A stretch of DNA of 54,051 nucleotides, counting the filler, from Asterionella formosa (Eukaryota), in the NCBI GenBank assembly GCA_002256025.1. It is 4 parts of 4 records of this genome, joined end to end, with 100 filler letters (N's around TTAATTAATTAA, not from the genome) between each part and the next. Parts side by side here need not be neighbours in the genome. Positions count along the whole stretch, not along the records: positions 1 to 13,445 come from NKIB01006681.1; 3 more parts are not named here. One strand, 5' to 3'. A model generated the notes under the pieces. The model worked only from the letters and a program-made list of their open reading frames with translations, was not told the origin of the DNA and searched no databases. Positions within the stretch are counted from its first letter, which is position 1. Every line of letters starts with the position of its first letter. The translations under genes were made by a program, and so were the position numbers. This document shows, piece by piece, positions 2,061 through 40,630 of the stretch.

Positions 2061-3006
2061 TTGATTGAAAGCTTCAAGAGACATGCGATATTCCCGATGA
2101 AATCTATTCTCATGAAGAAGCTTTGTGACATGCTCATTCCAGTCAATTTGTTGATGCTCCCATTTTGGAATTCGCACTGCTGGCTTCGAGTTTTGTTCAT
2201 AGGACTCCAAAAATGATCATGTAACTGCTGGCTGCAATTAGCAAAAAGCTCTGTTGTTCCGCTTCTTCTTTATCAAGATTGTCAATGGCATCCCAACTGT
2301 CAGGTTCTTCCGGTCGATTTGTTGTCATTGTTGTTACAGCAATGATAATGGTCAGACATGTTGAATAATTGAAGCTCACATTGCAATTTTTTTTGTTGAG
2401 TCTGATGCACAGCCATGTTTGCAGAGACATATAGAAAACGGCTAACTAATTTACCGTTACAGAGATATATTTGTGAAATGTATCTCTGTAAAGATTCATT
2501 TTTTTCTGAAGATACAACAAAAAATAATTTGTATCTCTGTTAAGATTGGCCCTGATACTACATGTTATTTGATCATTGGGCACCTATTTATTATGCATAG
2601 CCATAAAATGTATCAACATGCAACATGTATACCGGTTTGATAACTGATGATGCATATCCGGTCAACGTGAATTCTACGATGGTACCTGGTACATTGATTT
2701 AACACGACGTTTTTGGGGAGAAAAGTCTCCACTACAGCCACACCGTTATCATGTAATAAGCAAGTTAAACGTAGATGCTGCTGACAGGGCCGCAGAAAAT
2801 ATACGTCATACTTGATAGGAGTACGGTACATACAAGCTATGAAGGGGAACAAACGTCAGTCTCGAAACACATGGGGAGGACAACAATTTCTCCCCAGCCA
2901 GCCAAGAAAGCAACATGAAGTAGAGAGTATAGAGTCTCGAAAATTCTCCCCATTTTTCCACTCTTCAACAGGGACAGCAGTCTGATAGCGAAAAGGAGAA
3001 GCAATA

Positions 3007-4987
3007 ATGAAGAAAACGAGTGTAGCAGCAACAGCGGCTCTCTCGATTCAGATACTTTCTGGACTTGTACAACTCCCAGCAATTTCAAGTGCCTTCGCTC
3101 CAGGAACCGGAGTGGCCTTTTGCTCGCTTGCAAAGCGAAGTACGACCGCGCAACACAGGAGATTCGTGGCGACCGATTCATCCTTCCCACCTCCAGATCT
3201 GCCGGTTCAAGGAGATGATGGGATCTATCACCTTCTCAGCAAGGAGCAGCACTTGTGAGTTGCAGATGGCTACTGTTTGTTTTTGTTTTCACCCATGTTT
3301 GTGTTGCTAAATCGCCAACACCTACATACAACACTGCAGAGCGTTCCTTGAAGCCAATCCAGACAAACTCGTTGTCCTCAAGTTCTACGCCCCATGGTGC
3401 AAGGCTTGCAAAGGCTTGGAACCGAAATTTCTATCCATCGTCAAGAATCCTACATATCAGGACTTGCCCATCCTATTTTCAGATTTATCAGTCATGGGGA
3501 ACAAGGACTACATTAAACATTTGGGCGTCTTGGCTCTTCCATTCATTCAGTTCTATGCAGGAAATGAAGGGGGATTAGTAGAAAGCTTTCCCTGTGGCCC
3601 CAGCAAGGTGCCCATACTCAAGGAAAAACTCACGCACCTCATCAATGAACGTATTGATCCGACGACGAAGAAACTAAAAGCATGGATCTCCACGACTGAA
3701 GAAACAGAACCATGTGCAGCTCGCTCGTTGACAACGACTACAGAACCCAATAGCAGCAATGCGACACAGTTAACTGTAGGTGGAGTTCAAATTTCGGAAG
3801 AAAAACTTGCACTGTTGAGAACATCCATACCATACTTTGCTGACTTTACGGATGAAGAATTCTTCGGGCTCATGAGCAAGGCAAAGCTGTTGACTTTTGA
3901 ACCATCGTCCATCATCATGAGAGAAGGCAAGCCAGGAAAAACATTTTACGTTATCGATACTGGCGAAGTCGAAATTTCTTGCCGCACGGCCTTTGCGGAC
4001 CCACTCACCACTCCCTCGTCATATTTGGGAACAGTCATTAATAAGTTCGGTCCCAACGAATACTTCGGCGAACGATCGCTCATTACAGGAGAGCCTCGGG
4101 CAGCATCAGTTGTCGCTTGGAAAAAGACACGATGCTTTGCCTTTAACATTAACGACATTCCGCAATCGTCCATTCTGTCGGGCAAGGGTGGAGTCAGTGA
4201 ATTCCGGCTGCAACAAGTTAATAACAAGTATGGAGTGGACATGGATTTCGGGGATGCTACGTCGGCCACATTGAAAGCGCAATTGGAAGCCAGTACGATG
4301 GGGAGTCAAGTACGTGGATCAGTCAATTCACCTCAAGTCATTCGAGGAGTAGATACCGATGAAGAAGTGGAGGATGATGTGGTAGCATCTAACACAATGT
4401 CTGTGGCAGACATTGCCAATCCTAATGATCAAATCATTATTCCATTGTTGGTCAAGTTCCGAATGATTCGACACGCCGCCCGTTGCTTTGATTATATCAT
4501 GACAACCCAACCCAGGTGGGGCGATAAAGGAACTCAACGTCGTCGCAGTATGTTAGTGCAACGTCTGACTAAGGCACAGCGCGAAGAATTCACTAATGTC
4601 TTTTCGATTATTGACCAATCAAAGAAGGATGAGATCAGTTTGTTGGACTTGAAGAGAGTAATGGAGTCTATAGGGGAAACCAAGTCTGACGTTGAGCTCC
4701 AAGCAATGATTTCAAATACAAATATGGATGGGAAAGAAGTGATATCAAAGCAGGACTTTCTGGGCATCATGGCAGAAGCGGACTTTTATCATTTATTCAA
4801 AGACACGTTCGCCAGTATGGACAAGCACAACAGCGGGTTTGTCAAAGCATCTGAGTTAGATCGTGTCCTTTGTGGTATGCGTGACTTGATCAGTGACGAT
4901 CGCAAATCTATTATTGACGTGGATGACAAGGATATGATGATTGACTACGAACAGTTTAGTAAGATGCTGCTGGGAACTTCTCTTTGA
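3007..4987 (+). CDS. Predicted plastid-targeted thioredoxin + cyclic-nucleotide-binding + EF-hand fusion protein, 631 aa; exons 3007-3254, 3340-4987
   Basis: Intron 3255-3339 (GTGAGT..GCTAA..CTGCAG) joins the ORFs in frame, giving ..EQHLAFLEANPDKLVVLKFYAPWCKACKGLEPKF (Trx CxxC). CNB domain has FGERSLITGEPRAASV. C-terminal EF-hand loops include DKHNSGFVKASEL. N-terminus is a hydrophobic signal followed by SSAFAP. Confidence 0.9.
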
Positions 4988-5654
4988 TCCATTGGAGATA
5001 TACCTTAATACCTCACCGGTTTAGTGTTGCATATTCAAGTAGAAAAATTAAGATTTTGCCCTTTCGAGTGGGTCCAATGAGATGTAAATAGTAACAACTA
5101 AGTCCTCCCTGCATGGTCTCCGTTGAATGGACTGGTATCCTTGTACCGGCTTGACCTTATACCTGGACTCCATACCCTTCTGAGTTATTACAGCCAGACC
5201 TGAGCTTCATTAATAATAGTGACACTATGATGATAGGCTGTACATATGATGCATCCGTCCATTGTTGGCAAGGCTGTCGTGGCCATACCGGGTCCTGCTA
5301 CCAGGTACTTTATCTGGTAGAATTGTTACCTGTTCTGTAGTAAGTACAAGTACTGTCGTACCAGGTACATGCAGTACCGGTAATATAAATATTGTCATAG
5401 AATAACTAAATAAATAAATACATACATAGCTATAATTTTCCGGTATGTAGTCTCGAAACCATTAGCAATAGCAACGATACTTAATGGAGACACATCCATG
5501 GCGGCCGAGCTTAAACTCGTGTCTTCAGCTCACATAAAAATACAAATACAAAAAATTTCGCAGTTTCTTCTCGTTACCTTCGCAGCTATTGCTTACTCTT
5601 CCATTGCTCATTCTTTCTCTTACTTTGAATTCATAGGATTATAGCATCATTGCT

Positions 5655-8252
5655 ATGCCTACACCATTCTCTGTTTATGTACGCACAGCAAAGATTCTTC
5701 AGCAAAGCGAAAAAAAGCACAACAAACAGAGAGATTCCGTAACCAAGCTTGCCGCCAAAAATGTTACGACACCATATAAGAGTCGATTGTCAATGATTCA
5801 GAAAGGAGATTCGTCTCAACAAGACCAACATACTCCCGTTTCTGATACTATCAGGAACTACGGTAGTCAGAACCCTCGTTTGCGACAAATCCGACACTCG
5901 TATGCACTTCCATCAGTAGCGAGAAGGTTGCCGCCAACACCTTCCATTGCACTATTTGGTGGCAATCGTGTACCTTTTGATATAAAAGGAGCAAAAGAGG
6001 ATAACGATTCGCATATGGGAGGTGTTGTCATGTCTCAATTGACCATGCCTGAGTTTGGAAGCAATTCCGTCAGCGACTCCACGAATTCGCAGCATTCCAC
6101 GTCATATCCTCCATTTCTAAATCATTCATCCAACCAGGGTGTTTCAAGCAATGGTTCCTCTCAACTGAATCATCCAAAATCTCAATTCAGTGCTTCTCTC
6201 GCAAAAGCATCATCTACTGACTCGCGTCCACTTCGATTGTCTCAGATCTCCAGTTCAGCAACAAGTCAATTCAGTTTTCATCAGATTCCGCGCGCTCCTT
6301 CTGGAACGCCGATCCCCGAGACTCCTATTCATCAGAGGCGATCTTGGATGTCTAATACTATGCCCTGTCGACGAAGCATTTTCGAAAATCCCATTATTCC
6401 TCGCTTCAGAGACATAGAACAACCTCCGTATCATTCCCAAACACTGGTTCCTATCAATACCAAGGATCGAGCCACGTGTTCAGCCAATTTACATCCCATT
6501 TCCGCTACTCCTGCTCCCACCCGTGAGGTTATTTTTAACGACAATAGATGTGAATACATGATGTCATCGCCTTCCGAGAAATTGAGCGTCGTTTCACGAA
6601 ACGAGTCCGACGATGTCGCCAACAAGGAGCTGCACCAGTTGACAGAAATCCATAACATTGTAACGCAAGCGACCAATCAAATAGAGACGCTGGCCGAAAC
6701 TGTTCGGGATCAGAGGCGTCATATGGATGAGATTGAGGCAGCGACCCTTGATTTTCAAAATGATCATTCAGAAACCGTTGTGCGAGAGCAGAAACGTCAC
6801 ATGAACGAGATTGAGACTGTCAGAAATCAGCATCAAATTGCACTTAACGAAACTGCTGTCCGAGAGCAGAAGCGTCACATGGACGAGATGCAGGCTGTCA
6901 AAAGCGAATATCGAATTGAACTTACCGAAACTGCTGCCCGAGAACAGAAACGCCATATGGAGAATTTAGAGACTGCACTCACTGAAAGTGCGGTCCGAGA
7001 GCAGAAACGTTACATGGACGCGATGGAGGCTGTCAGCAGTCAGTATCAAATTGCACTTACCGCTACCGCTGCCCGAGAGCAGAAACGTCACATGGAGGAT
7101 TTGGAGACTGCCAGCAGTCATCATCGAAATAAACTCACTGAAACTTTGGCGCTAGAGCAGAAACTTCATTGGGAGGCGATGGAGGCTGCCAATCTTAAGA
7201 ATCGAACCGCGCTGACTGAAACATCAGCCCGCGAGCAGAGACGTCATATGGAAGAAATGGAGGCCGTCAGCTGGCAGTATCAAAATTCTCTTGAGACAAT
7301 ATGCGCAACAAGTAAAAGCGATATTCATTCTGTTGGTGCTCGAGAAATCAAATCTCTTTCCACGTCCTTGACAAACCATTCTGTATCACTTCGCATTGCA
7401 GAAGACGATCACCGCCGTGAAGCATTCGAAGCGGAGAAGTCAAATTTTATCTTTAGCGTCCTCCCGTTGCTCCGAGATAAGGCGAGAGATATCATTAATG
7501 CAGCACTGGACAGCGAGCTGGTGATCACCAAAGTGCACGACATAATGAATTCGTTCAAGGTCAGCGTGATCGGTCAATTGAAGGCAGAAAGCCGCAAAAT
7601 ATTCATGCTACCTGCCTTCACTTTTGGGATGGAAAAGCAGTCCGTTTCCCAGCTCCCAGTAGCCTCAACCCCGCCATCCAAAATACTTGATAATGTTATA
7701 CTCTCCATGGATTCCGCAACGAAGAAACGCCCAAGCCCCGTTTCGATACCGGTTCGCCGAAGCAAACGTCTTCGTACTTCGGCCAAGGCGTCTGCTTTGA
7801 AAGAAATTCAGAATCACTGCGTCACACCGTATGCGCAAAGGAACATAGAGCGCAAATCAATCGATAGCTACACAAAACTCCCTACCACAAACTCGCTGTC
7901 TCCTAGGTCAGTGCAGATTACCACTAACATGACTGTGGACCTTGAAAGGTCCAATACTGAGAAAGGAAAACAGAAATTTTTGGAAGGTGACAGGCGACCT
8001 CGTAAGCTTGAGATGGACCTTTCCGCAAGCGAGCTGGGGCCGCGAGGCAATTTTAGGTTCACAGAGCCTCGCAGCACAAACAAGGCGGCCGTCGTGCCTT
8101 GCACGCCTAAATCCAAATCTAAAACCTCCGCGGTATCAGAAATCTCTTACCATCCCAATCGCAATCGCTCGAAAAGACGTAAGGCTCAGAACTACCAGCA
8201 TCATAATGTTCACAAGGCAATTGACGACTCTTTCAGTTTTTTGGATCGTTAG
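5655..8252 (+). CDS. Hypothetical 865-aa protein: S/P/Q-rich disordered ends, central helical repeats, basic NLS-like clusters
   Basis: Long uninterrupted ATG-started ORF with 8 internal ETxxREQKRHM repeats, plus KKRPS..RRSKRLR and RSKRRK clusters. Confidence 0.8.
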   Translation: MPTPFSVYVRTAKILQQSEKKHNKQRDSVTKLAAKNVTTPYKSRLSMIQKGDSSQQDQHTPVSDTIRNYGSQNPRLRQIRHSYALPSVARRLPPTPSIALFGGNRVPFDIKGAKEDNDSHMGGVVMSQLTMPEFGSNSVSDSTNSQHSTSYPPFLNHSSNQGVSSNGSSQLNHPKSQFSASLAKASSTDSRPLRLSQISSSATSQFSFHQIPRAPSGTPIPETPIHQRRSWMSNTMPCRRSIFENPIIPRFRDIEQPPYHSQTLVPINTKDRATCSANLHPISATPAPTREVIFNDNRCEYMMSSPSEKLSVVSRNESDDVANKELHQLTEIHNIVTQATNQIETLAETVRDQRRHMDEIEAATLDFQNDHSETVVREQKRHMNEIETVRNQHQIALNETAVREQKRHMDEMQAVKSEYRIELTETAAREQKRHMENLETALTESAVREQKRYMDAMEAVSSQYQIALTATAAREQKRHMEDLETASSHHRNKLTETLALEQKLHWEAMEAANLKNRTALTETSAREQRRHMEEMEAVSWQYQNSLETICATSKSDIHSVGAREIKSLSTSLTNHSVSLRIAEDDHRREAFEAEKSNFIFSVLPLLRDKARDIINAALDSELVITKVHDIMNSFKVSVIGQLKAESRKIFMLPAFTFGMEKQSVSQLPVASTPPSKILDNVILSMDSATKKRPSPVSIPVRRSKRLRTSAKASALKEIQNHCVTPYAQRNIERKSIDSYTKLPTTNSLSPRSVQITTNMTVDLERSNTEKGKQKFLEGDRRPRKLEMDLSASELGPRGNFRFTEPRSTNKAAVVPCTPKSKSKTSAVSEISYHPNRNRSKRRKAQNYQHHNVHKAIDDSFSFLDR
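6696..7295 (+). repeat. Coding tandem repeat, 8 units of mostly 78 nt (26 aa)
   Basis: Units ETVVREQKRHMNEIETVRNQHQIALN, ETAVREQKRHMDEMQAVKSEYRIELT and so on; one unit is shortened to 19 aa and the first is 25 aa. Confidence 0.9.
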
Positions 8253-9970: not shown

Positions 9971-11759
9971 GGAGGGTTTATTAAGGAGGGAATGCCAAAT
10001 CACTACTAATTAGGGTTATGATTTAAATTTACTTAGGAGGAAGAACATGAATAGGAAGCCAGCCGACTCCAACAGTCGGTCGAAATTGCAAAGCCCTGCA
10101 GGCGGGCTGAAACCAAAAAAGCGCGCAATTGGCGCAATTACCACCACACCTTCCTGGTGCGTATGATTCACAGACTCATACGGAGTACATACAAAGCAGA
10201 ACAGATTTGGCATTGGAATCACAAACAACCACACATATGACACCATGGGCCAATGCCTCGGCAGGTACTAGGGCAGACCGTGTACTGGTCAAGACTTGGG
10301 CTGCACACGTGTTTTTAGTGAGTGAATGTCTCACACTACCTCTCCCAGGTGTAGGGGCGGGGTTGTGCCTCGTCACCAGACACCAGGACATAAATGGATG
10401 ATGGGGTGCTTAAAAACCATTTCTGATTAGCTACTATGCACGTGTACTGGTGTGAAGAGTTCGAATCCTCCCATGATTACCCCCAAGCACCCACAACTAT
10501 GGGGCAGACGGGCAAAGCGGCCGGATTGGTTTTCTCCTGGCGCCTTGTTGGAACAGCAAAAAACACCACACATACTACGACAATTTGTTCCCAACCGTTA
10601 GCATTGCGCTCACTCATCCGCCATGCCCTTCTTGTCCTTCTTGCTGTACTCCCAGAAAGATTCTACTGATGATCCTTAGAAAGTTATTATCTACAATGTT
10701 GTATTCAATGAGGGGGTGTTCGACATGATTGCTGAGGATAGCTCATAAGTTGAAGAAGAGACATTGACACTGAAGAAACAAGAATCAAGACCTCCAAAAA
10801 GAAAAGTGACAAGAACCAGCAGACCAGATTTTGTCTCACATCTTTATCCACCAGAATCTCACTCAGTTGTCCATTTTCATGATAAATCCTTTTTCTCGCG
10901 GTGAAAGCAGCAATAACAAGCAATTATAACAATGATATGAAGAACACCAATTGATACCTTCATTCAGCGAATATTATCAGTTTTCATGTGTTCACAATTA
11001 GCAAAATGTGATAGGATTCAGTGGATCATATTTTCGAACGCACTTAAATATTGTTATCAATCAGCAAAATCTGTCTAAAAATACGTGCAGTGATTTGCAT
11101 TGACTCAAATACAAGTCAGCTTTTAGGGACAAGCCAAGCAAGAAAATGGCATCAGGATGATTGATTGAGTCAAAACAATTTGACCTTCAAAGCTTAACCA
11201 AACACTTAATAAAGTTTGTGTCAAACTTAAAATCACTTGAATCCTTGTCCATGATGATGTTAGCTCTGCCAAAAATCCAGCCAATCAACTGATGGAACAA
11301 AGCAGTTGTTGCAAGTGATTTCCTCACAATGACACTTTCTGTTGTTTACTTTCTTGGAGTATATGTATCAAAAAGAGGAGGCTTGACTAAATCATGCAGG
11401 AGCTTGAGGGATGCATGATTGAACTTTCACAATGCAATGAAGCATCATTACGCTCACTACTGAATAAAAGACAAATAAACTTCAGGCATAGACGAGTAAC
11501 AATGCAGTGAGGATACTGTCATAATATCACAGACTACCTGGTACCCTCATCATTTAGTTGGGAGGACAACACAAAAACACTCAATGTATGAACTGTGAAC
11601 AATTATATGCTATTTATATTTTAATAATTTATAATTATTGGCGTCACAATAAATATAGATATATAATATTATGTCGACCACAATCAGCTTTTTGTGATAT
11701 CTGAAGAAGTAGCTTCCCTGTGCTGTCCACATCTATTTCACCAGCCAGTCACAGCAAGA

Positions 11760-12980
11760 ATGGAAGAAGCAATTGTCAGTACCGCTATCATCAAAGCAGA
11801 AGTTGGAGGGAAGAAGGCGTCGTCGTCTCGCGGCCGAGTGACGTCTCCCGCATTGGAGCAAGTTTCCGCTGCGACCCTCGCCGCTCTGGCTCAAGCAGCG
11901 GGGAGCCTCCAGTGCTTGCCCAATTTATTACTCCTGGGGAGCAACCTTCCGTCGGTGGAACAGTTAACGACAGCAGCCACCAAGTTCTATACAGAAACAC
12001 CCCCGTTTGTTCATTTTGCAAAGAACGATTCAGCGCCGCAATTAAAGATAGAGGGACATTTTCTCGTCAAGGGTGGGATGCGAGGGTATCGCATGGCGAG
12101 AGCAAGTCACGGAGTTACGGAGGGGACGTACTACTTTGAACTTGTAATTAAGGAACCTCCATCAGTTCAAGAAATCGCTGCTTCACTGCCCTCCAATGTT
12201 AGACTCGGACCGAAGTTGCAAAAGCAGCTTCAGGACGAGTTGCTTAGGCAAACTGCTGAATCGTCAACCGAAAAATCAACAGGCGACCATGAACCGAAAA
12301 AGAAGAAAGCAAAGGAAGATGTTGATTTTATAGGTGGTCATCTCCGTGTGGGTTGGTCCATGCGTACTGCCGACCTCCAAGCCCCAGTGGGGTATGACAA
12401 GTGGTCCTTTGGCATTCGTGATATTTCGGGATCTCGAATACACAACTCACGTCGACACGATGATTGGGGTGGAGAAGCGTTCGGACCTGGTGATGTTATT
12501 GGATTGTGCATAAGCCTGGGTACAGGACTTGGAAATATGCGTGCGTTTAAAAATGGTGAAGCAATGGGACACTTTGTCATTTCAAAAGGGAAACGCGAAG
12601 GCGGAGCATGCTTTGATGACATGCCAGATGGGGTGTACTATCCAGCCGTTAGTGTCTATATGGGTGGCACCTGTCAAGCCAACTTTGGACCGCACTTTAT
12701 TTATCCACCTAGGCAGTTGCCGTCTGGAATGAAAGTACACCCTGTCAGTGGTTTGTCCCCCATACCTTCAGTGACTGTTGACCTCAATGCGCTGCCCAAG
12801 AAATTGGACGAAGGCTTGGTCAAGAACTTTCAAGAGCTAGTCAAAACAGAAACTGATATTCGTTACCAAGAGTATCAAAAGCATTTGCAGGATCATATTC
12901 GGATAGTAAAGGCAGCACGACAAGAACGAGGTTTGTCAGTTGAAAATTTGCCGACAGAGGAGAAAAGGGAAACAGAATAG
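11760..12980 (+). CDS. ASH2: ASH2/Bre2/TRAUCO-like SPRY-domain subunit of Set1/COMPASS, about 406 aa
   Basis: GYRMARASHGVTEGTYYFE, HLRVGWS, LQAPVGYDKWSFGIRD, GDVIG, FKNG, YYPAVS and NFGPHF are ASH2L SPRY motifs. First ATG is at 11760. Confidence 0.85.
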   Translation: MEEAIVSTAIIKAEVGGKKASSSRGRVTSPALEQVSAATLAALAQAAGSLQCLPNLLLLGSNLPSVEQLTTAATKFYTETPPFVHFAKNDSAPQLKIEGHFLVKGGMRGYRMARASHGVTEGTYYFELVIKEPPSVQEIAASLPSNVRLGPKLQKQLQDELLRQTAESSTEKSTGDHEPKKKKAKEDVDFIGGHLRVGWSMRTADLQAPVGYDKWSFGIRDISGSRIHNSRRHDDWGGEAFGPGDVIGLCISLGTGLGNMRAFKNGEAMGHFVISKGKREGGACFDDMPDGVYYPAVSVYMGGTCQANFGPHFIYPPRQLPSGMKVHPVSGLSPIPSVTVDLNALPKKLDEGLVKNFQELVKTETDIRYQEYQKHLQDHIRIVKAARQERGLSVENLPTEEKRETE

Positions 12981-13445: not shown

Positions 13446-13545
13446 NNNNNNNNNNNNNNNNNNNNNNNNNNNNNNNNNNNNNNNNNNNNTTAATTAATTA
13501 ANNNNNNNNNNNNNNNNNNNNNNNNNNNNNNNNNNNNNNNNNNNN
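13446..13545. other. Artificial contig spacer N44-TTAATTAATTAA-N44
   Basis: The same 100-nt construct occurs three times; the 12-mer places stops in all six frames. Confidence 0.95.
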
Positions 13546-26989: not shown

Positions 26990-27089
26990 NNNNNNNNNNN
27001 NNNNNNNNNNNNNNNNNNNNNNNNNNNNNNNNNTTAATTAATTAANNNNNNNNNNNNNNNNNNNNNNNNNNNNNNNNNNNNNNNNNNNN
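26990..27089. other. Artificial contig spacer
   Basis: N44-TTAATTAATTAA-N44. Confidence 0.95.
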
Positions 27090-29275: not shown

Positions 29276-29975
29276 AATTACTTAAAAGTTCTCAAATGGC
29301 AAGACAATAGCTGGAGTGGGAATCGCCAAAATACAATCATAGGAAATACCGGTATGTGCAAAATTTATTTCAATGATGGGCAAAAGCGGACCTTTGGCAA
29401 GATTTGATGTGAACATCGTGAATATTTGAAACATATTTCAAATGATGGGCAATAGCCAGCTAAAATTGATATTTTTTGCTTAATGAGTGGGCAGTAGCTA
29501 AGCGAATAGCGCGACAATAACTAGTTTGTAAATTGCCATAACAAACCCTTTTCGGTGGCTACATGCCTTCTCGTACACATATGTCCTCCGCTGGGATGGC
29601 ACTTGTAGGGTGACCTTCTCGCAGCGGCGGGGGCGCCACTCGTAGCTGCGCTCACCCTACCGGTTCTCGTGACACCCAGCCTCGAACAAATGTATGCTCG
29701 CATGCATGAGACCACCTCGGGCTTGTATTGCCTTCAGTATGTATTATGATGACCCTGTTTTATTACGCACTATCTGCTTGACATGGATATATGACGACGA
29801 TGATTTCAGGATCTTTTTGCCCATATTACCGGTAGGCAAGTATGTGATGCTGCTGATGCTTCCTCATTGCATCGCAACTGAACAATTTTATGCATAGCAA
29901 ATGTATTTGTGCTCGCACATGTTGAAGCTTTGAAATTGATTTCTACGGGAACAATCAAGGGTTACAACTTCCCTC

Positions 29976-32354
29976 ATGTGGCGAGCACGATCACGTAGCG
30001 CGTCAACTGCCATAAAGCAATTCGCTCGCAGTCCTCGTCAGCCCTTTGCAGCAGCAGCTGCAGCTGCTGCTTCACTAGTAGCGCTTCACATTTTGGATAC
30101 CCTTTTAAATACAACCAACAACAGCACTGAGGGACAAAGCAGCATTCCAACAGGAGCTGTTGTATCATGTGACGATTCCAAGGGAAATGTTGTGTCCCCT
30201 GGCATCATGAGAAACCTCTCGCGTCTTGCCCGCCACTCCACAGTCCAACGCCTCGAAGCCACGTCCACTGCTGCGTCGCTCTCATCTCGTTACACCATTA
30301 AATGGGGCGTCCCCTTGGGAGAAGGAGCCTTTGGAAAAGTGTACCAGGGAATCGACAACGACACATTAGACCCAATCGCACTCAAGAAGATATCTAAGCA
30401 GCATACATCGAGTGACGCCTTTGCGCGAGAAATGGATGCACTTCTCACTATTCGTGACCAAGGTGGCCATCCAAATATATGCGGACTAAGAGAAAATTTT
30501 GAGGAGCAAGGCCACTATTTAGTAGTTCTTGACTTGGTGGCTGGGGGGGAAATGTTTGATTACCTATGCACCAAGGGGGCCTACAGTGAAGCAGATGCGG
30601 CAAGGTTGATTCGAGAAATTGCAAGTGCACTGGCATTTGTACATGGAATTGGCGTCGTACATGGGGACTTGAAGCCCGAAAATCTCATGCTTAGTACGGA
30701 GAATCCAAGTGACTCTGTCATTCAATTGGTCGACTTTGGATGTGCCCAAGTTTTACGCCACCGAGATTACATGTTCGATTTCAGTTCATCGCGCACTATA
30801 GGCAATACGCCGGCATATAGTCCTCCCGAAGTGTTCCAGAACAAGAAGCTCCGGGTTATGGAACCATCCATGGACATGTGGGCCTTGGGGATTATATTAT
30901 ATATCATGTTAACCGGAGTTCATCCGTTTGATTTACAAGGAAATAGCACGGATAAGGAGATCGAAGAACGGGTACTGGCACGAAAGACGCCACCACTCAT
31001 GTCCAGTCCTATTACAGCGCATCTATCGCCTTCGGCCTTGGATCTCATCTCGAAATTAATGACTTGGAACCCGAAACAGCGTATCACTGCGTTGGAAATG
31101 TTGGAGCATCCATGGGTGCGTGGCGAGACAGCTTCACAAGAGAAAATGGAAGGCTCTGACAAGAAGTTGTCTAAATATCGTGCCTTCAAATCGCGTCTTG
31201 AAGCGGAAGTCTTTGGTGAATTCGTCCACTGGGCTAATGATGATTGCCTTGTTTCGAAGCGCACTTCACTGTTGGAACGGAGCTTTCGAAAGTTTGATCC
31301 CGAGCACAAAGGATACATAACTTCCACTAATCTCAGGCAGTTGACAAAAGACAAATTAAACTCTGATTCCGAAGAGGAAGAAACACGTCTGTCCTTGGCT
31401 GGATTTAGTGATCTTTTGAGTGAAAATATGAAGAATCGATATTTTCCGAAGGGACACATCATATATCGTGAAGGCGAAAGTGGCCATCACATGTATTTTA
31501 TCAATAGCGGGACCATCGAAGTCTCCACCAAAGACGGATCGCTAGCTAAGCGATCTCAAGGTGACTTCTTTGGAGAGGGCGCACTGTTGCATCCTCGCAA
31601 GATTCGATCAGCAACCATCAAATGTGTCACCCCTGTTCATGCAATTGAGATTTCGAGAGAATATTTTGACAAATACCTGGCAACAAGCCAAGCTGAACTG
31701 CATTTGACTATAAAGGAGAAAGACAAGACGAGAAAGCGGAATCGAGCAAAGTCCATTCTTCGATTACAGAACAATATAAAGGATCGCAAAATAAAGAAGG
31801 GAGATTATGCCTTCAAAGTCGGAGATGAAGGCCTTGAGTTATTCATTTTGGAGGAGGGTAAGATCGACATACTCATTGAAGATCACATCGTCTTTTCAAT
31901 CTCTCCGGGGGATATGTTTGGAGAGCACTCGTTGATATTCGGAAAACCTCGTAATACGGCCGCCCTTTGTGTGTCAGACCTATGCAAGATGCACGTCATG
32001 CGAGCTCGAGATTTCTATTCCTTTCTAGATGCCACTCCAACTGTCAAGGAAAGTGTGCGAGATATATGTCTTCGTCGCGAGTTTCAGAAAGCATTAGTAT
32101 TTCGAACCAAAAAACCATTCCCTACCAAGCAATCTGACTTGAAAGAAGCCTTTGATGCAGCTGATGAGGACCTGTCAGGAAAAATCTCGTTGGCCAACAT
32201 AACATCCATGCTAAAGCAAATGGACCCGACACTGACTGTTGAGGAATTGCACGACATATTAGTCTCACTAGACCTTGACGAGACTGGTCAGGTGAGCTTT
32301 GAGGAGTTCAAAAGTATTTTTGGAGTGGACGAAAGACAGGCAAAGGCAATATAG
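29976..32354 (+). CDS. CaMK/CDPK-like Ser/Thr kinase with EF-hands and two cyclic-nucleotide-binding domains, 792 aa
   Basis: LGEGAFGKV, ALK, HGDLKPEN, DFG, YSPPE, DMWALG, HPW. EF-like loop DPEHKGYITSTNL. CNBs FFGEGALL..RSAT and MFGEHSL..PRNT. C-terminal EF loops DEDLSGKISLANI and DLDETGQVSFEEF. Confidence 0.93.
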   Translation: MWRARSRSASTAIKQFARSPRQPFAAAAAAAASLVALHILDTLLNTTNNSTEGQSSIPTGAVVSCDDSKGNVVSPGIMRNLSRLARHSTVQRLEATSTAASLSSRYTIKWGVPLGEGAFGKVYQGIDNDTLDPIALKKISKQHTSSDAFAREMDALLTIRDQGGHPNICGLRENFEEQGHYLVVLDLVAGGEMFDYLCTKGAYSEADAARLIREIASALAFVHGIGVVHGDLKPENLMLSTENPSDSVIQLVDFGCAQVLRHRDYMFDFSSSRTIGNTPAYSPPEVFQNKKLRVMEPSMDMWALGIILYIMLTGVHPFDLQGNSTDKEIEERVLARKTPPLMSSPITAHLSPSALDLISKLMTWNPKQRITALEMLEHPWVRGETASQEKMEGSDKKLSKYRAFKSRLEAEVFGEFVHWANDDCLVSKRTSLLERSFRKFDPEHKGYITSTNLRQLTKDKLNSDSEEEETRLSLAGFSDLLSENMKNRYFPKGHIIYREGESGHHMYFINSGTIEVSTKDGSLAKRSQGDFFGEGALLHPRKIRSATIKCVTPVHAIEISREYFDKYLATSQAELHLTIKEKDKTRKRNRAKSILRLQNNIKDRKIKKGDYAFKVGDEGLELFILEEGKIDILIEDHIVFSISPGDMFGEHSLIFGKPRNTAALCVSDLCKMHVMRARDFYSFLDATPTVKESVRDICLRREFQKALVFRTKKPFPTKQSDLKEAFDAADEDLSGKISLANITSMLKQMDPTLTVEELHDILVSLDLDETGQVSFEEFKSIFGVDERQAKAI

Positions 32355-33041: not shown

Positions 33042-35878
33042 CTACGGATCATCGTTACGAATCATCGTAAGAGCAACGATATCTTCCCGAGATTCATCGT
33101 CACTCAACGACTTTAATCTCCTTCTTGCGTCTTGCAGTCTTAGGCTGTCGTCCGTTGCAATTGCCGCCACATCATTGTGCGTGTTACTGACTGAGTTTCC
33201 TACGTTTTCGGTCGGTTCAGGGACCGTGATGCCACTTCTGTCGCCCTTTGCAAGTCTGTCTGCCGTTAACTTCAACAGCTGGGTGATGAATCTATTGCTG
33301 GTCTTCATTAAGGCCGATCGACGACGCCAAACTTTGCTAGTCAAAATAGATGCTAGCTCTACAGCTTCCTGTCGGTCGATAGTCGACAGGTCAAAAGTAG
33401 AGACAATAGATTGCTGCCTGCTGAAGGCTATCAGCTTAGTAGTGGTGTCGACAATCACGTCATCAGCGGCGCTCATTCTTACAAGGGGAGATGTTCTCCA
33501 CAACCCGAGAGGATCCACCAAGGTTCCAAGGATAGTTCGCCCGGAAGGAAGCATACCAGACTGCTCACGTAGTTGAGTCCAAACAGATCTGCTGGTGGAC
33601 GCGACAATCTTGGCAAGCTGCTCCAATAATATGCTTTGAAGGGGCGTTTCTTCTTCTGTAAAAATGAGATCTAAAAGCTGGTCCGCAGCTTGCTCCAATT
33701 GCTGGGTCCGGGACATATTTTCCTTTCCCAACAAGGCCCCAGAAGCAGATGTTGTATAATTACCGAATCCAGTCACAAGCTGTTCCACTCGCCTGTAATC
33801 AACAATTCTTGTGTCAACGTTATACTTCTCAGGTCCAAAGATAAATGTTGAAAGAGCCCCTCCAGTTCGTTCGGATTTATCAGTCAATAGGCGCTTGGAC
33901 ACATACGGGAGACATTCATTAATGATGGAATATTTGGGATCATTTGAGAGTCCAATTCCTTCTAAAACACTGAAGGACTTTGCGATGTAAGCAAAGTATG
34001 GAGGAATTTGAAACAGATTTCCTCTGGTGGCAGTCAGGTCCTGGAGCTGCGTGACAACTTGGTTAACATTTATGGCACCTACGCCTCCACCTGTCGTCCA
34101 TGCTCCGTAGATATCTGCGAGGACTTCAACAACGCCACTATCTTCGATCAAATCAGCTTTATTCGGCGGGATAAATCCTAGCAGGAGCAAGTCTCGTGGG
34201 ATCTCGGCGTAGTCCGCAGATGTCAAGTGAGCCATGTGTTCAATCAAGGTCAATTGCAGGTCTTTATCAAGCGTTGTCACCATCCCCCAATCAAGAATAC
34301 ACAGGCGACCCTCTGGTGTTCGCAATAAGTTTCCGGGGTCTTGAGAGGAGAACAGACATCCATTGTTTTGTTAGTTCCCAAAAAAATTTACATTTCATTA
34401 AGTTGACAGAACCAACTTACGAGGATCACAGTGAAGTAGGCCAGTTTCAAGCATCATTGTCAAGTAAGTGTTCATGGCAATGCTGCAAAGCACAGTCACA
34501 TCATCTTGTGCCGACTTGTCAAGTCGTTCTCCATCCACCCATGCAGTAGTCAAGACTCTTCGCGTCGAGTACTGCTCAATGATATCAGGAGCAAATACCA
34601 CATCCTTCAACGGGGTTGTTTGTATGGATTTCATAAAGGTCTGGGCGTTTTTGGCTTCACTATGATAGTCCAATTCATCCACGAATCCAGTGCCCCATGC
34701 ATCGACTGTCCCAACAGTGTCCGTATTCAAGTTGAAAACCCTCTTTGCAATCGACCCCATTTCCCGTAACAAGTGCATGTCAAGAGCGATTTGTTCCATA
34801 ATATTGGGACGCTGGACCTTGATAGCTACTTGCTCGCCGGTAGACTTGAGGGTGGCCTTGTATACTTGTCCTAATGACGCTGCTGCTACTGGCTTCGCCG
34901 ACACACTGACCACAACATTATCAACTTTGTCGCCCCATTCAGTTTCCAAAATCTGTTTTGCAATGGCAGTATCAAAGGCGGGAACTTGATCCTGGAGCGT
35001 TTGAAGTCCCCGAACATATGCGGGCGACAAGAGATCTGTTCGGATACTAAGCGATTGACCAACCTTAATAAAAGTAGGTCCAAGTTTTGTCAAGACACCT
35101 GCCAACTGCACAGCTCGTTCTTCTGACTTTTGGTCCAGCGATTTACTAAAACAAAAATATGTTGAGTATATTGAGTACGTCTACAGGAATGGCATGTATA
35201 TATATATCCATGATCGCCCAATACTCACTTGAGATAATCCTGCAATAACCCAAGTCCAAACCCAATAGATGTCGTGGCAACATCTAATCCGCGCGCCACA
35301 ACTTTGATTGGGCGCCGATCAAAGTATGCTCGAGCCGAGAATGGGTCATATCGCTGCAACGGATAAGGCTGTAGCGGAGGTGGGCTTTGGCCAGCACTCA
35401 ACAGAGACGACACCGCCGCGTAAGTCACCAATGTGGAGGCCAAAATTACCAACGAAGGTGAGGCACCGTCCAAAGACACGGACGATAGATGTTGCGAAAT
35501 ACTGTTGTAGAGCGGTTGAAAGGAAGGGTGATCCGCAAGATAGGATTGAAGAGCTGCTACCAATATGACCCTCGCCTTTTCGAAAGCTAGCAAGACCGGA
35601 GCATCTACAGAATCTAGTGCTGATTGGAGCTGACTCAAGGTAGATTTCAACTGATTGATTGCTCCAGATAAGGATTCGTGATAGCCTGACGAAAGTTTAG
35701 CATTTATAGGATCAAAAATCGATATCAAAGCACTTGCAACATCCTTCACGATCTCCGGCGTTTGCTGTGCCTGGAGAGAAGTCGAAAGCAAATGTTTCGG
35801 TGAGCTTCTGCCCGGAGCAAACGCCAACCCCTTTCCGCCAAGGAGAAAGAGAAGCGAAAGGCCTCCTAAGATCTTCAT
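33042..35878 (-). CDS. Plastid-targeted ABC1/UbiB (ABC1K) atypical kinase, about 890 aa; exons 35878-35229, 35145-34421, 34339-33042
   Basis: LGPTFIKVGQ, AAASLGQVY, VAIKVQRP, ELDY, spliced LHCDPHPGNLL, ILDWGM. Both introns are GT-AG and restore the frame. N-terminal signal followed by GLAFAP. Confidence 0.92.
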
Positions 35879-36793: not shown

Positions 36794-37577
36794 ATATTTG
36801 TTCTAAACAGAGACACAGCTCTAGTATGAAAATGTGAAAAAATAAATGCATTTGGATGACGTTCTGTTTTCCCTCTAGGAGAAGAAAGATGTGTGTAAGA
36901 GATTCTACTTTGAGAGTATAACCGAGCAGGCTTACCGNNNNNNNNNNNNNNNNNNNNNNNNNNNNNNNNNNNNNNNNNNNNNNNNNNNNNNNNNNNNNNN
37001 NNNNNNNNNNNNNNNNNNNNNNNNNNNNNNNNNNNNNNNNNNNNNNNNNNNNNNNNNNNNNNNNNNNNNNNNNNNNNNNNNNNNNNNNNNNNNNNNNNNN
37101 NNNNNNNNNNNNNNNNNNNNNNNNNNNNNNNNNNNNNNNNNNNNNNNNNNNNNNNNNNNNNNNNNNNNNNNNNNNNNNNNNNNNNNNNNNNNNNNNNNNN
37201 NNNNNNNNNNNNNNNNNNNNNNNNNNNNNNNNNNNNNNNNNNNNNNNNNNNNNNNNNNNNNNNNNNNNNNNNNNNNNNNNNNNNNNNNNNNNNNNNNNNN
37301 NNNNNNNNNNNNNNNNNNNNNNNNNNNNNNNNNNNNNNNNNNNNNNNNNNNNNNNNNNNNNNNNNNNNNNNNNNNNNNNNNNNNNNNNNNNNNNNNNNNN
37401 NNNNNNNNNNNNNNNNNNNNNNNNNNNNNNNNNNNNNNNNNNNNNNNNNNNNNNNNNNNNNNNNNNNNNNNNNNNNNNNNNNNNNNNNNNNNNNNNNNNN
37501 NNNNNNNNNNNNNNNNNNNNNNNNNNNNNNNNNNNNNNNNNNNNNNNNNNNNNNNNNNNNNNNNNNNNNNNNNNNNN

Positions 37578-38786
37578 GCAGCGATATCAAATCTACCATA
37601 TGGTGGCGGAAGTGGGCCATGACGAAAGCCATCTCGCCAGAAGAAGAGGGCTCTCTCCTTGAGTACGGTAGTGTCTGGATGTTTCCAAAGCTGGCTAATA
37701 TCGATCCCGTCCAAAACCGATGGCACGTTAATGCCTAAAAGGGATAGAAGCGTCGGTATGACATCTAATGTGGATACCATTTCGTTACTTTCTTTTCCTG
37801 CTGGAATAACACCGGGCCATCGAACCAACGCGGGCATTCGAAGATTTGCTTCCCAAACTGATCCTAATCCAGTATCTGCTCCACAATGAACTCCGTTGAC
37901 CTCTTGGTTTTTCCCTGGAAGCACACACCGTCTCATGTTTTCACTCGTAGGACTAGGTTCGTAATCACTCGGGCATGCTGTGCAGGTTAGATCTGTGTTA
38001 TCCTGCAGCCAACGGCCTTCAAAAGGTCCTTTCGACCCTGAACATTCCTGCTCTGCGACCCACGGTCCATTATCACTCGTGAATAATACAATGGTGTCAT
38101 TGCTGATGCCCAACTCATCTAAAGTATCCAGCACTTGACCAGCAATCCAATCCATCTCTTCAACTGAGTCCACAAACGTACTAGGTCCGGTTCTACCCCA
38201 TTGACACGTCTTTTGTTCATTTCCGAATTTTGGTGCACAGAGTTGATGCACGTGCGAGAATGGGAGATACAACAAGAATGGTGATTGAGTTGCATGATGT
38301 TTCCGCATGAATTTATTCGCTGCATCGGCGTAGACTTTAGCCAATTCTTGTAATCGGACTGGCTGCTGTAGAATCGTGCCTCCTTGATACAATGGAAGCC
38401 ACAAGGTATCATCTTTATCCTGGAAGCAGGTATGATTGTCAACAGATCCACCAGACATGTGATAGGGAATCCCAATCCATTCCTCAAAGCCTTGATTTGT
38501 TGGTAAATAATCAGGTCGATGCCCTAGGTGCCATTTTCCAACTATGGCAGAAGCATATCCTGGGAGATACTCGGCTATTGTCGTTTCATTCGGTGAAAGT
38601 CCATATACTGAATCGGGACCAAAAACTCTAGGATAAATTCCCATCTTTGCAGGATATTTTCCAGTTATCAATGCTGCTCGACTGGCTGAGCATAGGTGTG
38701 CGGCGGAGTTCCAGTTATTTAACTTCAATCCTTCTCGCCCAAGTCGATCGATGTTTGGTGTTTTTGCAGAGGCTGCTCCGAAGAAA
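37578..38786 (-). CDS. Formylglycine-dependent (S1) sulfatase, arylsulfatase-like; both ends in N gaps
   Basis: TPNIDRL, LCSASRAALITG, GKWHLG, FTSDNGP, WEANLRMPALVRWPG, DGID. Confidence 0.9.
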
Positions 38787-40530
38787 NNNNNNNNNNNNNN
38801 NNNNNNNNNNNNNNNNNNNNNNNNNNNNNNNNNNNNNNNNNNNNNNNNNNNNNNNNNNNNNNNNNNNNNNNNNNNNNNNNNNNNNNNNNNNNNNNNNNNN
38901 NNNNNNNNNNNNNNNNNNNNNNNNNNNNNNNNNNNNNNNNNNNNNNNNNNNNNNNNNNNNNNNNNNNNNNNNNNNNNNNNNNNNNNNNNNNNNNNNNNNN
39001 NNNNNNNNNNNNNNNNNNNNNNNNNNNNNNNNNNNNNNNNNNNNNNNNNNNNNNNNNNNNNNNNNNNNNNNNNNNNNNNNNNNNNNNNNNNNNNNNNNNN
39101 NNNNNNNNNNNNNNNNNNNNNNNNNNNNNNNNNNNNNNNNNNNNNNNNNNNNNNNNNNNNNNNNNNNNNCGGCAATTCCCGCTCTAGCTATCGTCTTGCC
39201 ATTCGGGTACTTCTAAGTAATTTTTAGGCTTTAAGTAATTTGTTAAGCAATTTTTATTTAGGGGCAATATGGGGCAGATCGAATTTTTCGGCATTAAAAT
39301 TGCTGATTTTAGCATGACAGCTAGTAAGGTAATGGTAAAATACATGACAGAAATCATATAACATGCATCAAACAGACGAGAATAATTGTAAAAAGCAATA
39401 CCAATGAAATTATGCTTGACAATTGGAGCATCTAAATAAAGCATGAAATACAATGTAATGGTAGCATCAACTGAGAAGAAATTTGGATTAGAAATTGAGT
39501 AAAAAATATCAGTTTCCCTCAACACTTTTGCATTGCAATATTTAACCGAAGAGAAATTGCTAGATAAATGCTGATTGTTTCTGCTGGACAAAAAATATTT
39601 CGTTCTACAGAGGATGTCGAATAATATAGCTAACTTTTTGTGCACACCCAGATTTATGGCCAGTTGGTGATCCATGTCGATGGTCTCATCAGCCCCCCTT
39701 GCTTGTTGAGGCTGCGAAGCGAGCAATCGACGATACATTGACATTTTTTTGGTGTCAAATCCTTCATCCACTGCCATTGGTTAACGTAGTCTCAACGAGG
39801 GGGGGGGTTCTGGAGCAAACATTCCCAAGAAGGTATGATTCTATCGAAAAACACGCAAAAATCCAGGTCAGGTTCACCTTTTTCTAGAATACTTAGAACC
39901 TATCATATGATATACACCATTCGATTTGGAATAATTTTTATGTAGAAGAGGCTGTTAGCCGAATAATTTTTTCATGATTAGCCAAGCCATAAAACTTTGT
40001 TGCAACTATACATGACAGCTGCAATATTTTGTACTTCAACAAATGTTTTCAGACGAAAGGAAAATAGAAAATCATTGCAAAAATAATCCTATTCCATCTT
40101 GCGGCTTTTTAGCTAGATTAAGCTCCTTTCATTTTTTCAATCAAGTGATGCGAAATGAGTGGTTGATCGCTGTCGCTTCGATTTTCAACTTTTTCACCTC
40201 TCAGCAAATCTTGGCAGCATTCCAGACCCAAGATTCGCTGAGCGATGAAGAATTTCATAATTCCAGAGATTCATCAATCATATATTCTTATGTAGAATGA
40301 ATCTTTGTAGACTTTTTTCTCCATCTGCTCACAACACGGTAATGCTACTATTACATTAAAAAACATGTTCATCATAAATACCTATTACATCGTCACACAT
40401 CGCCATTGTCATCATCATTGTTACCCTTGTTGTTATCTCGTTCGCCTTGATTGGTTTCATACAGCATCATATAACTTCACTTTTATGGTCCCTTAGCTAA
40501 GACTATTCAATTGCTAATAGTAGAATAACC

Positions 40531-40630
40531 NNNNNNNNNNNNNNNNNNNNNNNNNNNNNNNNNNNNNNNNNNNNTTAATTAATTAANNNNNNNNNNNNNN
40601 NNNNNNNNNNNNNNNNNNNNNNNNNNNNNN
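40531..40630. other. Artificial contig spacer
   Basis: N44-TTAATTAATTAA-N44. Confidence 0.95.

Follow-up and report, generated by a model that had tools for sequence, protein, structure and literature searches.

Why would an alga place an oxidoreductase, a cyclic-nucleotide-binding (CNB) domain and a calmodulin-like domain in a single polypeptide, behind what looks like a plastid presequence? The question is raised by a gene found at positions 3007 to 4987, on the forward strand, of a DNA stretch of 54,051 nucleotides from the diatom Asterionella formosa (GenBank assembly GCA_002256025.1), the whole of which is called the window below. An original prediction, made from the sequence alone, had proposed that this gene encodes a plastid protein fusing thioredoxin, CNB and EF-hand domains. 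Diatoms account for a large share of the carbon fixed in the ocean, yet the way in which their plastid enzymes are switched is disputed: the main text of a plastid proteome study calls the degree of control that thioredoxins have over their photosynthesis "still contentious" (PMC6683858). The analysis presented here indicates that the three-domain architecture is solid, as far as sequence comparison can tell, and widely conserved in these ecologically dominant algae; its function is wholly predicted. The reading favored here, to which a probability of roughly 0.55 is given, is that of a "sensor-responder" thioredoxin of the stroma, comparable to Chlamydomonas calredoxin but equipped with a cyclic-nucleotide sensor as well, and with an output resembling Thioredoxin-like 2 (TrxL2), whose gating by ligands is presumed.

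Gene structure and transcripts

The long open reading frame (ORF) at this locus, 3311..4987 on the forward strand, has no usable start, and its first methionine lies downstream of the CxxC of the thioredoxin domain. The N-terminus is therefore missed, as had been suspected: the frame begins without a methionine and the real start is the ATG at 3007. An in-frame stop directly precedes this ATG, and the 83-codon frame that it opens closes at the TGA at 3256-3258. Excision of 3255-3339 (85 nt, GT..AG) joins both frames into a coding sequence of 1896 nt, corresponding to 631 amino acids plus the stop codon. This splicing event, which had been proposed along with an RNA check across the junction, is directly visible in contigs assembled from RNA libraries over the region 2800-5200. 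The joint from 3254 to 3340 was seen in all four runs, which belong to four studies, with 232, 30, 232 and 201 letters on its shorter side. In addition, a database protein, P0003 (631 amino acids, encoded on a contig of 2005 nt), is identical to the spliced product except for V6I and I234V, and these two substitutions match variants of the RNA runs, G>A at 3022 and A>G at 3778 respectively. On the strength of these two independent lines, the RNA joints and the identity with P0003, the splice at 3255-3339 is correct, and the locus is a real nuclear diatom gene with two exons.

The RNA evidence consists of contigs and so demonstrates the spliced form in RNA libraries, not the transcript ends or the level of expression. 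The intron is kept in one contig of 145 nt from run X2. From 3340 onward no further canonical joint is present, the contigs being continuous to 5047 (run X1) and to 5183 (run X6). A second joint, from 3552 to 3638 (85 nt, CT..AC), was considered as an intron and rejected because its ends are non-canonical, because it would shift the frame within the thioredoxin domain, and because the long X1 and X6 contigs read straight through it; it is carried by one 84-nt contig in one run, with 30 letters on the shorter side. The RNA runs that contain the gene are labelled lake, freshwater or estuary.

Architecture and distribution of the family

All three domains score above their Pfam cut-offs. In exon-2 numbering, Thioredoxin (PF00085) covers residues 6-76 with 39.5 bits (cut-off 23.5), cNMP_binding (PF00027) residues 185-272 with 49.5 bits (cut-off 27.5), EF-hand_7 residues 417-477 with 33.4 bits (cut-off 30) and EF-hand_6 residues 417-445 with 29.2 bits (cut-off 25). 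The proposed fusion was then followed by an architecture search across algae. With a word-indexed search, 548 proteins were retained at E <=0.001 among 7999 scored candidates, and the best 120 of these 548 relatives are 50-100% identical to the A. formosa protein over about its full length. In a precomputed Pfam column, cNMP_binding and a member of the EF-hand family are listed for all of these 120, and Thioredoxin for 117; the remaining three are shorter models (484-508 amino acids) that also lack the CxxC. The source names of the 120 include Skeletonema, Thalassiosira, Cyclotella, Cyclostephanos, Chaetoceros, Eucampia, Extubocellulus and Grammatophora, and one record bears the unverified label Alexandrium. 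An exhaustive search of representatives at 50% identity yielded 87 clusters at E <=1e-30, and the three domains were all found in 10 of the 14 more distant representatives that were scanned. Among the named distant members are two diatoms that branch early, Corethron hystrix and Leptocylindrus danicus, as well as the dictyochophyte Octactis speculum and Pelagophyceae sp. CCMP2097, and a partial model of a family member exists in Fragilariopsis cylindrus. One member, P0207 (445 amino acids), combines a WCRSC thioredoxin with a calmodulin-like end and has no CNB domain, a calredoxin-like two-domain form within the family.

An alignment of 97 sequences, on which the conservation counts given below are based, has a mean column identity of 40% and many invariant positions, linkers included. 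The conservation of the architecture in diatoms and their relatives bears out the proposed fusion, which, judging from these comparisons, is old within the ochrophyte algae and under strong constraint. The database names of the relatives are automatic ("Calmodulin", "hypothetical protein"), and a look-alike search in the ESM Atlas gave no usable match. The combination of thioredoxin, CNB and EF-hand domains is described nowhere in the literature found, a comparison that did not extend to Weber et al. 2009, whose inventory of diatom thioredoxins may list the gene. Likewise, the main text of a phylogenetic survey of thioredoxins mentions no such fusion (PMC12661521). The earlier statement that no characterised protein of this architecture was known thus holds for the literature found, with calredoxin as a partial precedent.

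The thioredoxin domain

The structural analysis was conducted on an AlphaFold model computed from the 97-sequence alignment, with P0003 as the modelled sequence (mean predicted local distance difference test score, pLDDT, 79.5; residues 1-58 disordered). In this model the thioredoxin fold is complete over residues 74-187, in the order strand-helix-strand-helix-strand-helix-strand-strand-helix, mostly with pLDDT >90. The active site is WCKAC, an atypical motif already pointed out in the original prediction. Among the 120 relatives, WCRAC is found 94 times, WCKAC 21 times and WCRSC twice, while three have no motif; WCGPC never occurs. W102, C103, A105 and C106 are invariant. A conserved ALP motif aligns with the LP that precedes the second-to-last strand of Arabidopsis Thioredoxin-like 2-1, and its P150 is presumably the cis-proline of the thioredoxin fold. 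This full catalytic set, invariant in the alignment, argues for catalysis.

The same Arabidopsis protein is the best single-domain match in the Protein Data Bank (PDB), with 50.1 bits over 91 residues (6lyx/6lyw), and its VESFSC aligns with VESFPC of the diatom protein. When the family profile was compared with the PDB, Thioredoxin-like 2-1 scored 63.6 bits in one stretch, against 50.7 for the next single-domain thioredoxin and 41.2 for the best single protein disulfide isomerase (PDI) domain among the matches listed; multi-domain PDIs outscore it in total only by summing domains. By sequence, the domain thus appears to be Thioredoxin-like-2-like, being most like plant chloroplast TrxL2 among solved structures, a subtype call drawn from comparison with PDB structures only. 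When shorter proteins were searched for its stand-alone relatives, the matches were limited to 18 fragments from the same family, the partial F. cylindrus model among them; neither plant TrxL2 nor ACHT, another atypical chloroplast thioredoxin of plants, was reached. The motif itself assigns the domain to neither type, as WCKAC fits neither WCRKC nor WC(G/A)SC, the reference motifs of TrxL2 and ACHT respectively (PMC12661521).

A plastid-type presequence

The signal peptide and the SSAFAP motif announced by the original prediction are both present at the N-terminus of the spliced product (Table 1). The conserved motif of diatom plastid presequences is named "ASAFAP" (PMC4329603). Among the relatives, the stretch that leads from this junction to the fold varies in length and in sequence. 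In diatoms, an aromatic residue at position +1 marks import into the plastid proper, that is the stroma, rather than periplastidial retention. Relatives with a methionine start and at least 85 residues before the CxxC were counted as full-length (n=53), and in 48 of these a simple script detected a hydrophobic window followed by A, S, G or C directly before F, W or Y, with F (41), Y (6) or W (1) at +1. The remaining five are apparently models truncated at an internal methionine; P0028, for example, is P0029 minus its first 27 residues. A bipartite presequence of plastid type is therefore common to 48/53 relatives, and the protein is probably targeted to the plastid. Targeting to the thylakoid lumen was considered and discarded on inspection: the transit region has His-Arg-Arg-Phe but no hydrophobic stretch after it. 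The main text of the Thalassiosira pseudonana plastid proteome paper contains none of the terms "cyclic nucleotide", "EF-hand" and "calmodulin" (PMC6683858).

The same N-terminus could be read in another way, with a PDI-like oxidoreductase carrying Ca2+-binding EF-hands that stays in the endomembrane or periplastidial space and never reaches the stroma. A signal peptide is indeed present, EF-hand proteins are common in the lumen of the endoplasmic reticulum (ER), and the FYAPWC..CK context scores well against PDI a-type domains. What makes this placement very improbable is the aromatic residue after the predicted cleavage site in 48/53 relatives, together with the variable Ser/Thr-rich stretch between signal peptide and fold, a C-terminus (LLGTSL) that is not an ER-retrieval signal, and a best single-domain match that is a chloroplast stromal thioredoxin.

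The cyclic-nucleotide-binding domain

In the AlphaFold model, residues 236-380 form the CNB barrel with its flanking helices, mostly with pLDDT >90. A Foldseek search with the whole model gave as top matches the CNB domains of PKG, PKA and HCN (E ~1e-8, probability 1.0, target TM-score 0.66-0.80). A CNB domain with an intact phosphate-binding cassette had been claimed, and both elements are recovered: the Pfam score lies above the cut-off and the cassette FGERSLITGEPRAAS is intact. Within it, F325, G326 and R328 are invariant, and E327, R336, A337, A338 and S339 are kept in at least 90% of the sequences. The fold is shared with the regulatory CNB domains of PKG and PKA, and the cassette is nearly identical to that of CNB-D of apicomplexan PKG. 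Unlike these domains, which regulate a kinase, the diatom CNB is attached to a thioredoxin, has Ala for Thr after the cassette Arg, and carries a 14-residue insertion. The insertion, AFADPLTTPSSYLG, lies before the cassette strand and near the binding pocket; it contains an invariant Asp-Pro and is absent from the kinases. The Foldseek matches also include trypanosome "cAMP-independent" PKA regulatory subunits, one of them bound to guanosine.

The calmodulin-like domain

Calmodulins of the PDB match the last ~140 residues (407-544 of the exon-2 ORF) with E about 1e-15 (3e-15 to 1e-13), and the model has a helical EF-hand domain at residues 479-626. Together with the EF-hand_7 score, this agrees with the calmodulin-like C-terminus that had been expected. 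The further claim of at least one canonical EF loop has to be abandoned. When the loops were judged by the PROSITE EF-hand pattern PS00018, none of the four fitted, nor did any loop of the two nearest relatives, P0004 and P0005 (82-84% identity). EF1 reads DQSKKDEISLLD, with Lys at position 5, Asp at position 6 and Asp at position 12, where the relatives have D (90/97), G or N (92/97) and E (94/97) respectively. EF2 lacks the Asp at position 1, EF3 (DKHNSGFVKASE) has His at position 3 and Lys at position 9, and EF4 has Gln at position 12.

Among the 97 relatives, the pattern fits EF1 in 84, EF3 in 16 and EF2 in 2; the number of canonical loops per relative is zero in 10, one in 72 and two in 15. 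Since EF1 is canonical in 84/97, Ca2+ sensing is probably ancestral in the family, and the lineage of the A. formosa protein, by the same alignment, has lost the one Ca2+ loop that the family generally keeps. The decay of this loop in a freshwater lineage offers a natural comparison with the relatives that keep a canonical EF1.

Linkers and conserved features outside the domains

Conservation extends to the segments that join the domains. In the first linker, E204, P207, C208 and R211 are kept in at least 90% of the sequences. The same holds, in the acidic linker, for R408, G409, S410, N412, P414, G419, V420 and D421, next to an invariant Q406, and, in the basic amphipathic helix 449-472, for L452, L453, R455, A462, C465, F466, Y468 and I469. 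By analogy, the position of this helix directly before the calmodulin-like domain suggests a docking helix that would be captured intramolecularly by the EF-hand domain. In calcium-dependent protein kinases (CDPKs), the junction helix is captured by the calmodulin-like domain. The likeness is one of layout only, a basic amphipathic helix followed by a four-EF-hand domain, and the diatom protein has no kinase domain. A truly CDPK-like reading of this part was set aside, as no CDPK is found among the 60 best PDB matches.

Two other conserved features bear on a different reading, in which the protein would be a regulatory subunit or adaptor: the thioredoxin domain would serve as a redox-sensing or docking module, and the output would be the binding or release of a partner, for example a plastid kinase. 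The first is the RRRS at residues 483-486, where the residue that follows the invariant Arg-Arg is S in 72, A in 16 and T in 4 of the 97 sequences, with a hydrophobic residue next. In PKA regulatory subunits, the inhibitor site alternates between substrate and pseudosubstrate forms, and the Arg-Arg-Ser/Ala/Thr alternation resembles such sites. The second consists of five conserved cysteines outside the CxxC, C168 being invariant and C208, C348, C465 and C594 kept in at least 90%. The likeness of the CNB domain to kinase regulatory modules points in the same direction. However, RRRS falls within a predicted helix where the calmodulin-like domain begins, and not in a free linker upstream of the CNB domain as in PKA regulatory subunits, the catalytic set of the thioredoxin is invariant, and no partner is known. 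An adaptor role is accordingly considered improbable, if somewhat less so than an endomembrane location.

Comparison with characterised systems

Calredoxin, from the chloroplast of Chlamydomonas reinhardtii, also combines a calmodulin-like EF-hand domain and a thioredoxin domain in one chain (PMC4911631). A contact between the two domains makes its thioredoxin activity Ca2+-dependent, and 2-Cys peroxiredoxin is an interaction partner (PMC4911631, PMC13351737). More precisely, its four EF-hands touch the thioredoxin domain, half-maximal activity is reached at ~0.28 µM Ca2+, and the protein traps 2-Cys peroxiredoxin (PMC4911631). By analogy, calredoxin is a characterised partial precedent for a sensor-gated thioredoxin. 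The order of its domains is reversed, however, with the active-site C238 and C241 near its C-terminus (PMC4911631), whereas the diatom protein runs thioredoxin-CNB-calmodulin-like. Calredoxin has four functional EF-hands and no CNB domain, whereas the diatom protein has the added CNB domain and zero canonical loops by PS00018 (its relatives usually one). Calredoxin is also absent from the 60 best PDB sequence matches to the diatom protein, and the fusion is most likely independent of it.

TrxL2, for its part, is a stromal protein with the motif WCRKC and a midpoint potential of -258/-245 mV, against -321 to -335 mV for thioredoxins f and m (PMC6882916). It oxidises FBPase, SBPase and Rubisco activase and reduces 2-Cys peroxiredoxin; ferredoxin-thioredoxin reductase cannot reduce it, owing to the two basic residues of its motif (PMC6882916). 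Two features are common to TrxL2 and the diatom domain: VESFxC, with its additional Cys, and a basic residue in the first variable position of the CxxC. TrxL2 is a single domain with WCRKC, whereas the diatom protein has WC(K/R)AC fused to two sensor domains, and the redox potential, the insensitivity to the reductase and the coupling to peroxiredoxin are known of TrxL2 only. The diatom protein is therefore neither calredoxin nor a plain TrxL2: we infer that it works most like the former, with a catalytic domain most like the latter.

Proposed mechanism

In the "sensor-responder" reading, the bipartite presequence would carry the protein through all four membranes of the plastid and deliver it to the stroma. 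The thioredoxin domain is regarded as the output because it is the only catalytic module, and the CNB and calmodulin-like domains would be the inputs. There, the thioredoxin domain would exchange disulfides with stromal partners, and the binding of a cyclic nucleotide, in most species also of Ca2+, would alter the access to its active site or its reactivity. The basic residue in the CxxC and the likeness to TrxL2 point to a comparatively oxidising potential; enzymes activated by light may thus be oxidised by the domain, with 2-Cys peroxiredoxin receiving the electrons. On account of the same likeness, target oxidation or electron delivery to 2-Cys peroxiredoxin is considered as likely as classical reduction. 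As the canonical Ca2+ loop of the family has decayed in A. formosa, the cyclic-nucleotide input may dominate in this organism. Diatoms are reported to show stromal Ca2+ transients in response to high light and to oxidative stress (PMC11663583). The gating by cAMP or Ca2+, its direction and its ligands are proposed by analogy.

Several points weigh against this reading. The presequence was called by inspection and a simple script, as distinct from a formal targeting prediction. The FYAPWC..CK context of the thioredoxin domain also resembles PDI domains, and the second residue inside the CxxC is Ala here versus Lys in TrxL2, a replacement that makes the redox potential unreadable from the WCKAC motif. 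As for the ligand, Ala after the cassette Arg leans to cAMP, and the original prediction had read a cAMP-leaning signature from it. The Ala is present but amounts to no more than a lean, and one that is weakened: among solved CNB sequences, those of CNB-D from apicomplexan cGMP-dependent kinases come closest, with PKA regulatory subunits next. Between the apicomplexan PKG cassette, YFGERALLYDEPRTAS, and that of the diatom, the main change is Thr for Ala. The Ca2+ limb is weakened by the zero canonical loops of the protein itself. Across the 97 sequences, position 12 is Gln, Thr or Ser in EF4 of 94 and Lys in EF3 of 27; even in the relatives, at most one or two sites are predicted to bind Ca2+. 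In the literature found, there was no evidence for cyclic nucleotides inside diatom plastids, nor any localisation, ligand-binding or redox measurement for a member of the family. The passages that bear on it treat diatom cAMP as a signal for CO2 that lies upstream of nuclear gene expression, with promoters in the nucleus as its targets (PMC7378808), and the cyclic-nucleotide passages of a 2026 review make no mention of plastids (PMC13436692).

The arrangement of the domains adds to these points. The whole-model predicted TM-score is 0.53, which leaves the arrangement uncertain. Docking of the thioredoxin domain (residues 60-200) against the CNB plus calmodulin-like part (residues 236-631), with alignments unused, gave a score of 0.55, a weak support, the best of three controls reaching 0.19. 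The runs agree in at least 83% of contacts, with partner pLDDT of at least 84. The mark applied is reached by 51/78 solved complexes and 2/108 mismatched pairs; at scores <=0.60, where this result falls, are only 5 of the 78 solved complexes and all 4 passing mismatches (of 180), so that, unless there was prior reason to expect the pairing, a pass of this kind is wrong more often than it is right. The docking is compatible with an integrated unit but proves nothing.

Part of these observations would also be explained by a plastid oxidoreductase whose CNB and EF-hand domains no longer sense cAMP/cGMP or Ca2+ and act instead as structural, partner-binding or other-ligand modules, its activity being set by stromal redox alone. 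The absence of canonical loops here and in 10/97 relatives fits such a protein, as do the existence of CNB folds with other ligands (the trypanosome "cAMP-independent" PKA regulatory subunits, for instance), the conserved insertion near the CNB pocket, and the literature passages, which place no cyclic nucleotides in the diatom plastid. The cassette tells against it: its Gly is invariant and its Glu and Arg-Ala-Ala-Ser are kept in at least 90% of the 97 sequences, as expected if a cyclic phosphate is bound, and EF1 is canonical in 84/97 relatives. A loss of sensing is thus judged unlikely, though of the alternatives to the "sensor-responder" thioredoxin it is the one to be taken most seriously.

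Features of the gene and its neighbors

The features of the gene are gathered in Table 1.

Table 1. Features of the thioredoxin-CNB-calmodulin-like gene of A. formosa (positions in the window)
Feature	Residues	Positions	Strand	Basis or remark
5' leader of the mRNA (minimum extent)		2910..3006	+	Contig starts: X8 2910, X2 at or before 2800, X1 and X6 3023
Exon 1, coding part	1-82 plus two bases of codon 83	3007..3254	+	Matches the N-terminus of P0003
Signal-peptide-like region, ending SSA before Phe	1-29	3007..3093	+	Hydrophobic window, Kyte-Doolittle mean 1.91; A/F at 29/30; disordered in AlphaFold model
SSAFAP, ASAFAP-type junction, Phe at +1	27-32	3085..3102	+	Inspection of the N-terminus
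Transit-peptide-like stretch	30-66	3094..3204	+	Rich in Ala/Pro/Ser/Thr/Phe, net charge +2; pLDDT <50 to residue 58
Thioredoxin domain (spans the intron)	67-187	3205..3652	+	Pfam PF00085; AlphaFold fold; PDB match to Arabidopsis Thioredoxin-like 2-1
Intron, 85 nt, GT..AG, phase 2		3255..3339	+	RNA joint; GC 0.42 versus 0.52 and 0.45 in the exons
Exon 2, coding part, stop at 4985-4987	83-631	3340..4987	+	RNA contigs continuous
Active site WCKAC	102-106	3395..3409	+	Sequence; alignment of relatives
ALP, at the thioredoxin cis-proline position	148-150	3533..3541	+	A148, L149, P150 invariant in 97 sequences
FPCGPSK, with extra Cys168	166-172	3587..3607	+	Invariant in 97 sequences
Linker with conserved E-P-C (Cys208)		3653..3796	+	Short predicted strands 209-213, 227-229, 232-234 (model)
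CNB domain	236-380	3797..4231	+	Pfam PF00027; Foldseek; PDB sequence matches
Phosphate-binding cassette FGERSLITGEPRAAS	325-339	4064..4108	+	Intact
Acidic linker, partly disordered, motif Q..RGS.N.P...GVD		4232..4435	+	pLDDT 36-67
Basic amphipathic helix, directly before the calmodulin-like domain	449-472	4436..4507	+	Model pLDDT 80-86
Calmodulin-like domain, four EF-hand-like helix-loop-helix units	479-631	4526..4984	+	PDB calmodulins; Pfam; model helices
RRRS, resembling a kinase site or pseudosubstrate	483-486	4538..4549	+	R484, R485 invariant
EF1 loop DQSKKDEISLLDL, degenerate in this lineage		4613..4651	+	Loop columns; PS00018
EF3 loop DKHNSGFVKASEL, near-canonical		4820..4858	+	Off PS00018 at positions 3 and 9; EF-hand_1 21.1 bits, below cut-off 25.4
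3' untranslated region (contig-derived extent)		4988..5183	+	polyA-library contig X1 ends at 5047; metatranscriptome contigs reach 5165 and 5183

Just downstream of this gene, an 871-codon frame at 5637-8252 (+) has no Pfam match at E <=1e-4. Another open frame, at 11667-12980 (+), carries a SPRY domain (34.8 bits). A second gene of the window combines cyclic-nucleotide and Ca2+ sensors: the 804-codon frame at 29940-32354 (+) matches Pkinase (197 bits), cNMP_binding (111 bits in 2 stretches) and EF-hand_7 (61 bits). This kinase was considered as a recent source of the CNB and EF-hand modules of the thioredoxin fusion and rejected, the identity being only 27% over 116 residues (E 3e-05). On the reverse strand, two frames of the region 33042-35180, at 33042-34370 and 34398-35180, match positions 2-194 and 187-240 of the ABC1 atypical kinase profile and probably represent one gene split by a short intron. 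A Sulfatase match (128 bits) is found at 36932-39187 (-), in a frame whose apparent length of 751 codons is inflated by the N runs at 36938-37577 and 38787-39169 inside it. Finally, each of the segments 13446-13545, 26990-27089 and 40531-40630 consists of two 44-base N runs 12 bases apart, apparently masking or scaffolding marks and not biology.

Significance

Behind a plastid presequence, a redox enzyme is combined with two sensors of second messengers in one chain, an arrangement conserved from the diatoms that branch early as far as pelagophytes and dictyochophytes. A more ambitious version of the reading given above, and a doubtful one at this stage, would make the protein the stromal receptor of cyclic-nucleotide signalling in the secondary plastid of diatoms and related ochrophytes. 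A CO2- or light-dependent cAMP/cGMP signal, joined by stromal Ca2+ transients in most species, would switch a TrxL2-type oxidoreductase, which would oxidise Calvin-cycle or carbon-concentrating enzymes to turn them off and would drain electrons to 2-Cys peroxiredoxin. If this were true, it would constitute a direct post-translational link from second messengers to plastid redox control, with no known plant counterpart. More generally, if the domains work as their sequences suggest, this family would provide the first candidate for a cyclic-nucleotide receptor inside a plastid, it would parallel the coupling of Ca2+ to redox control by Chlamydomonas calredoxin, and it would offer a handle on a post-translational action, in the stroma, of the cAMP-based CO2 signal of diatoms.

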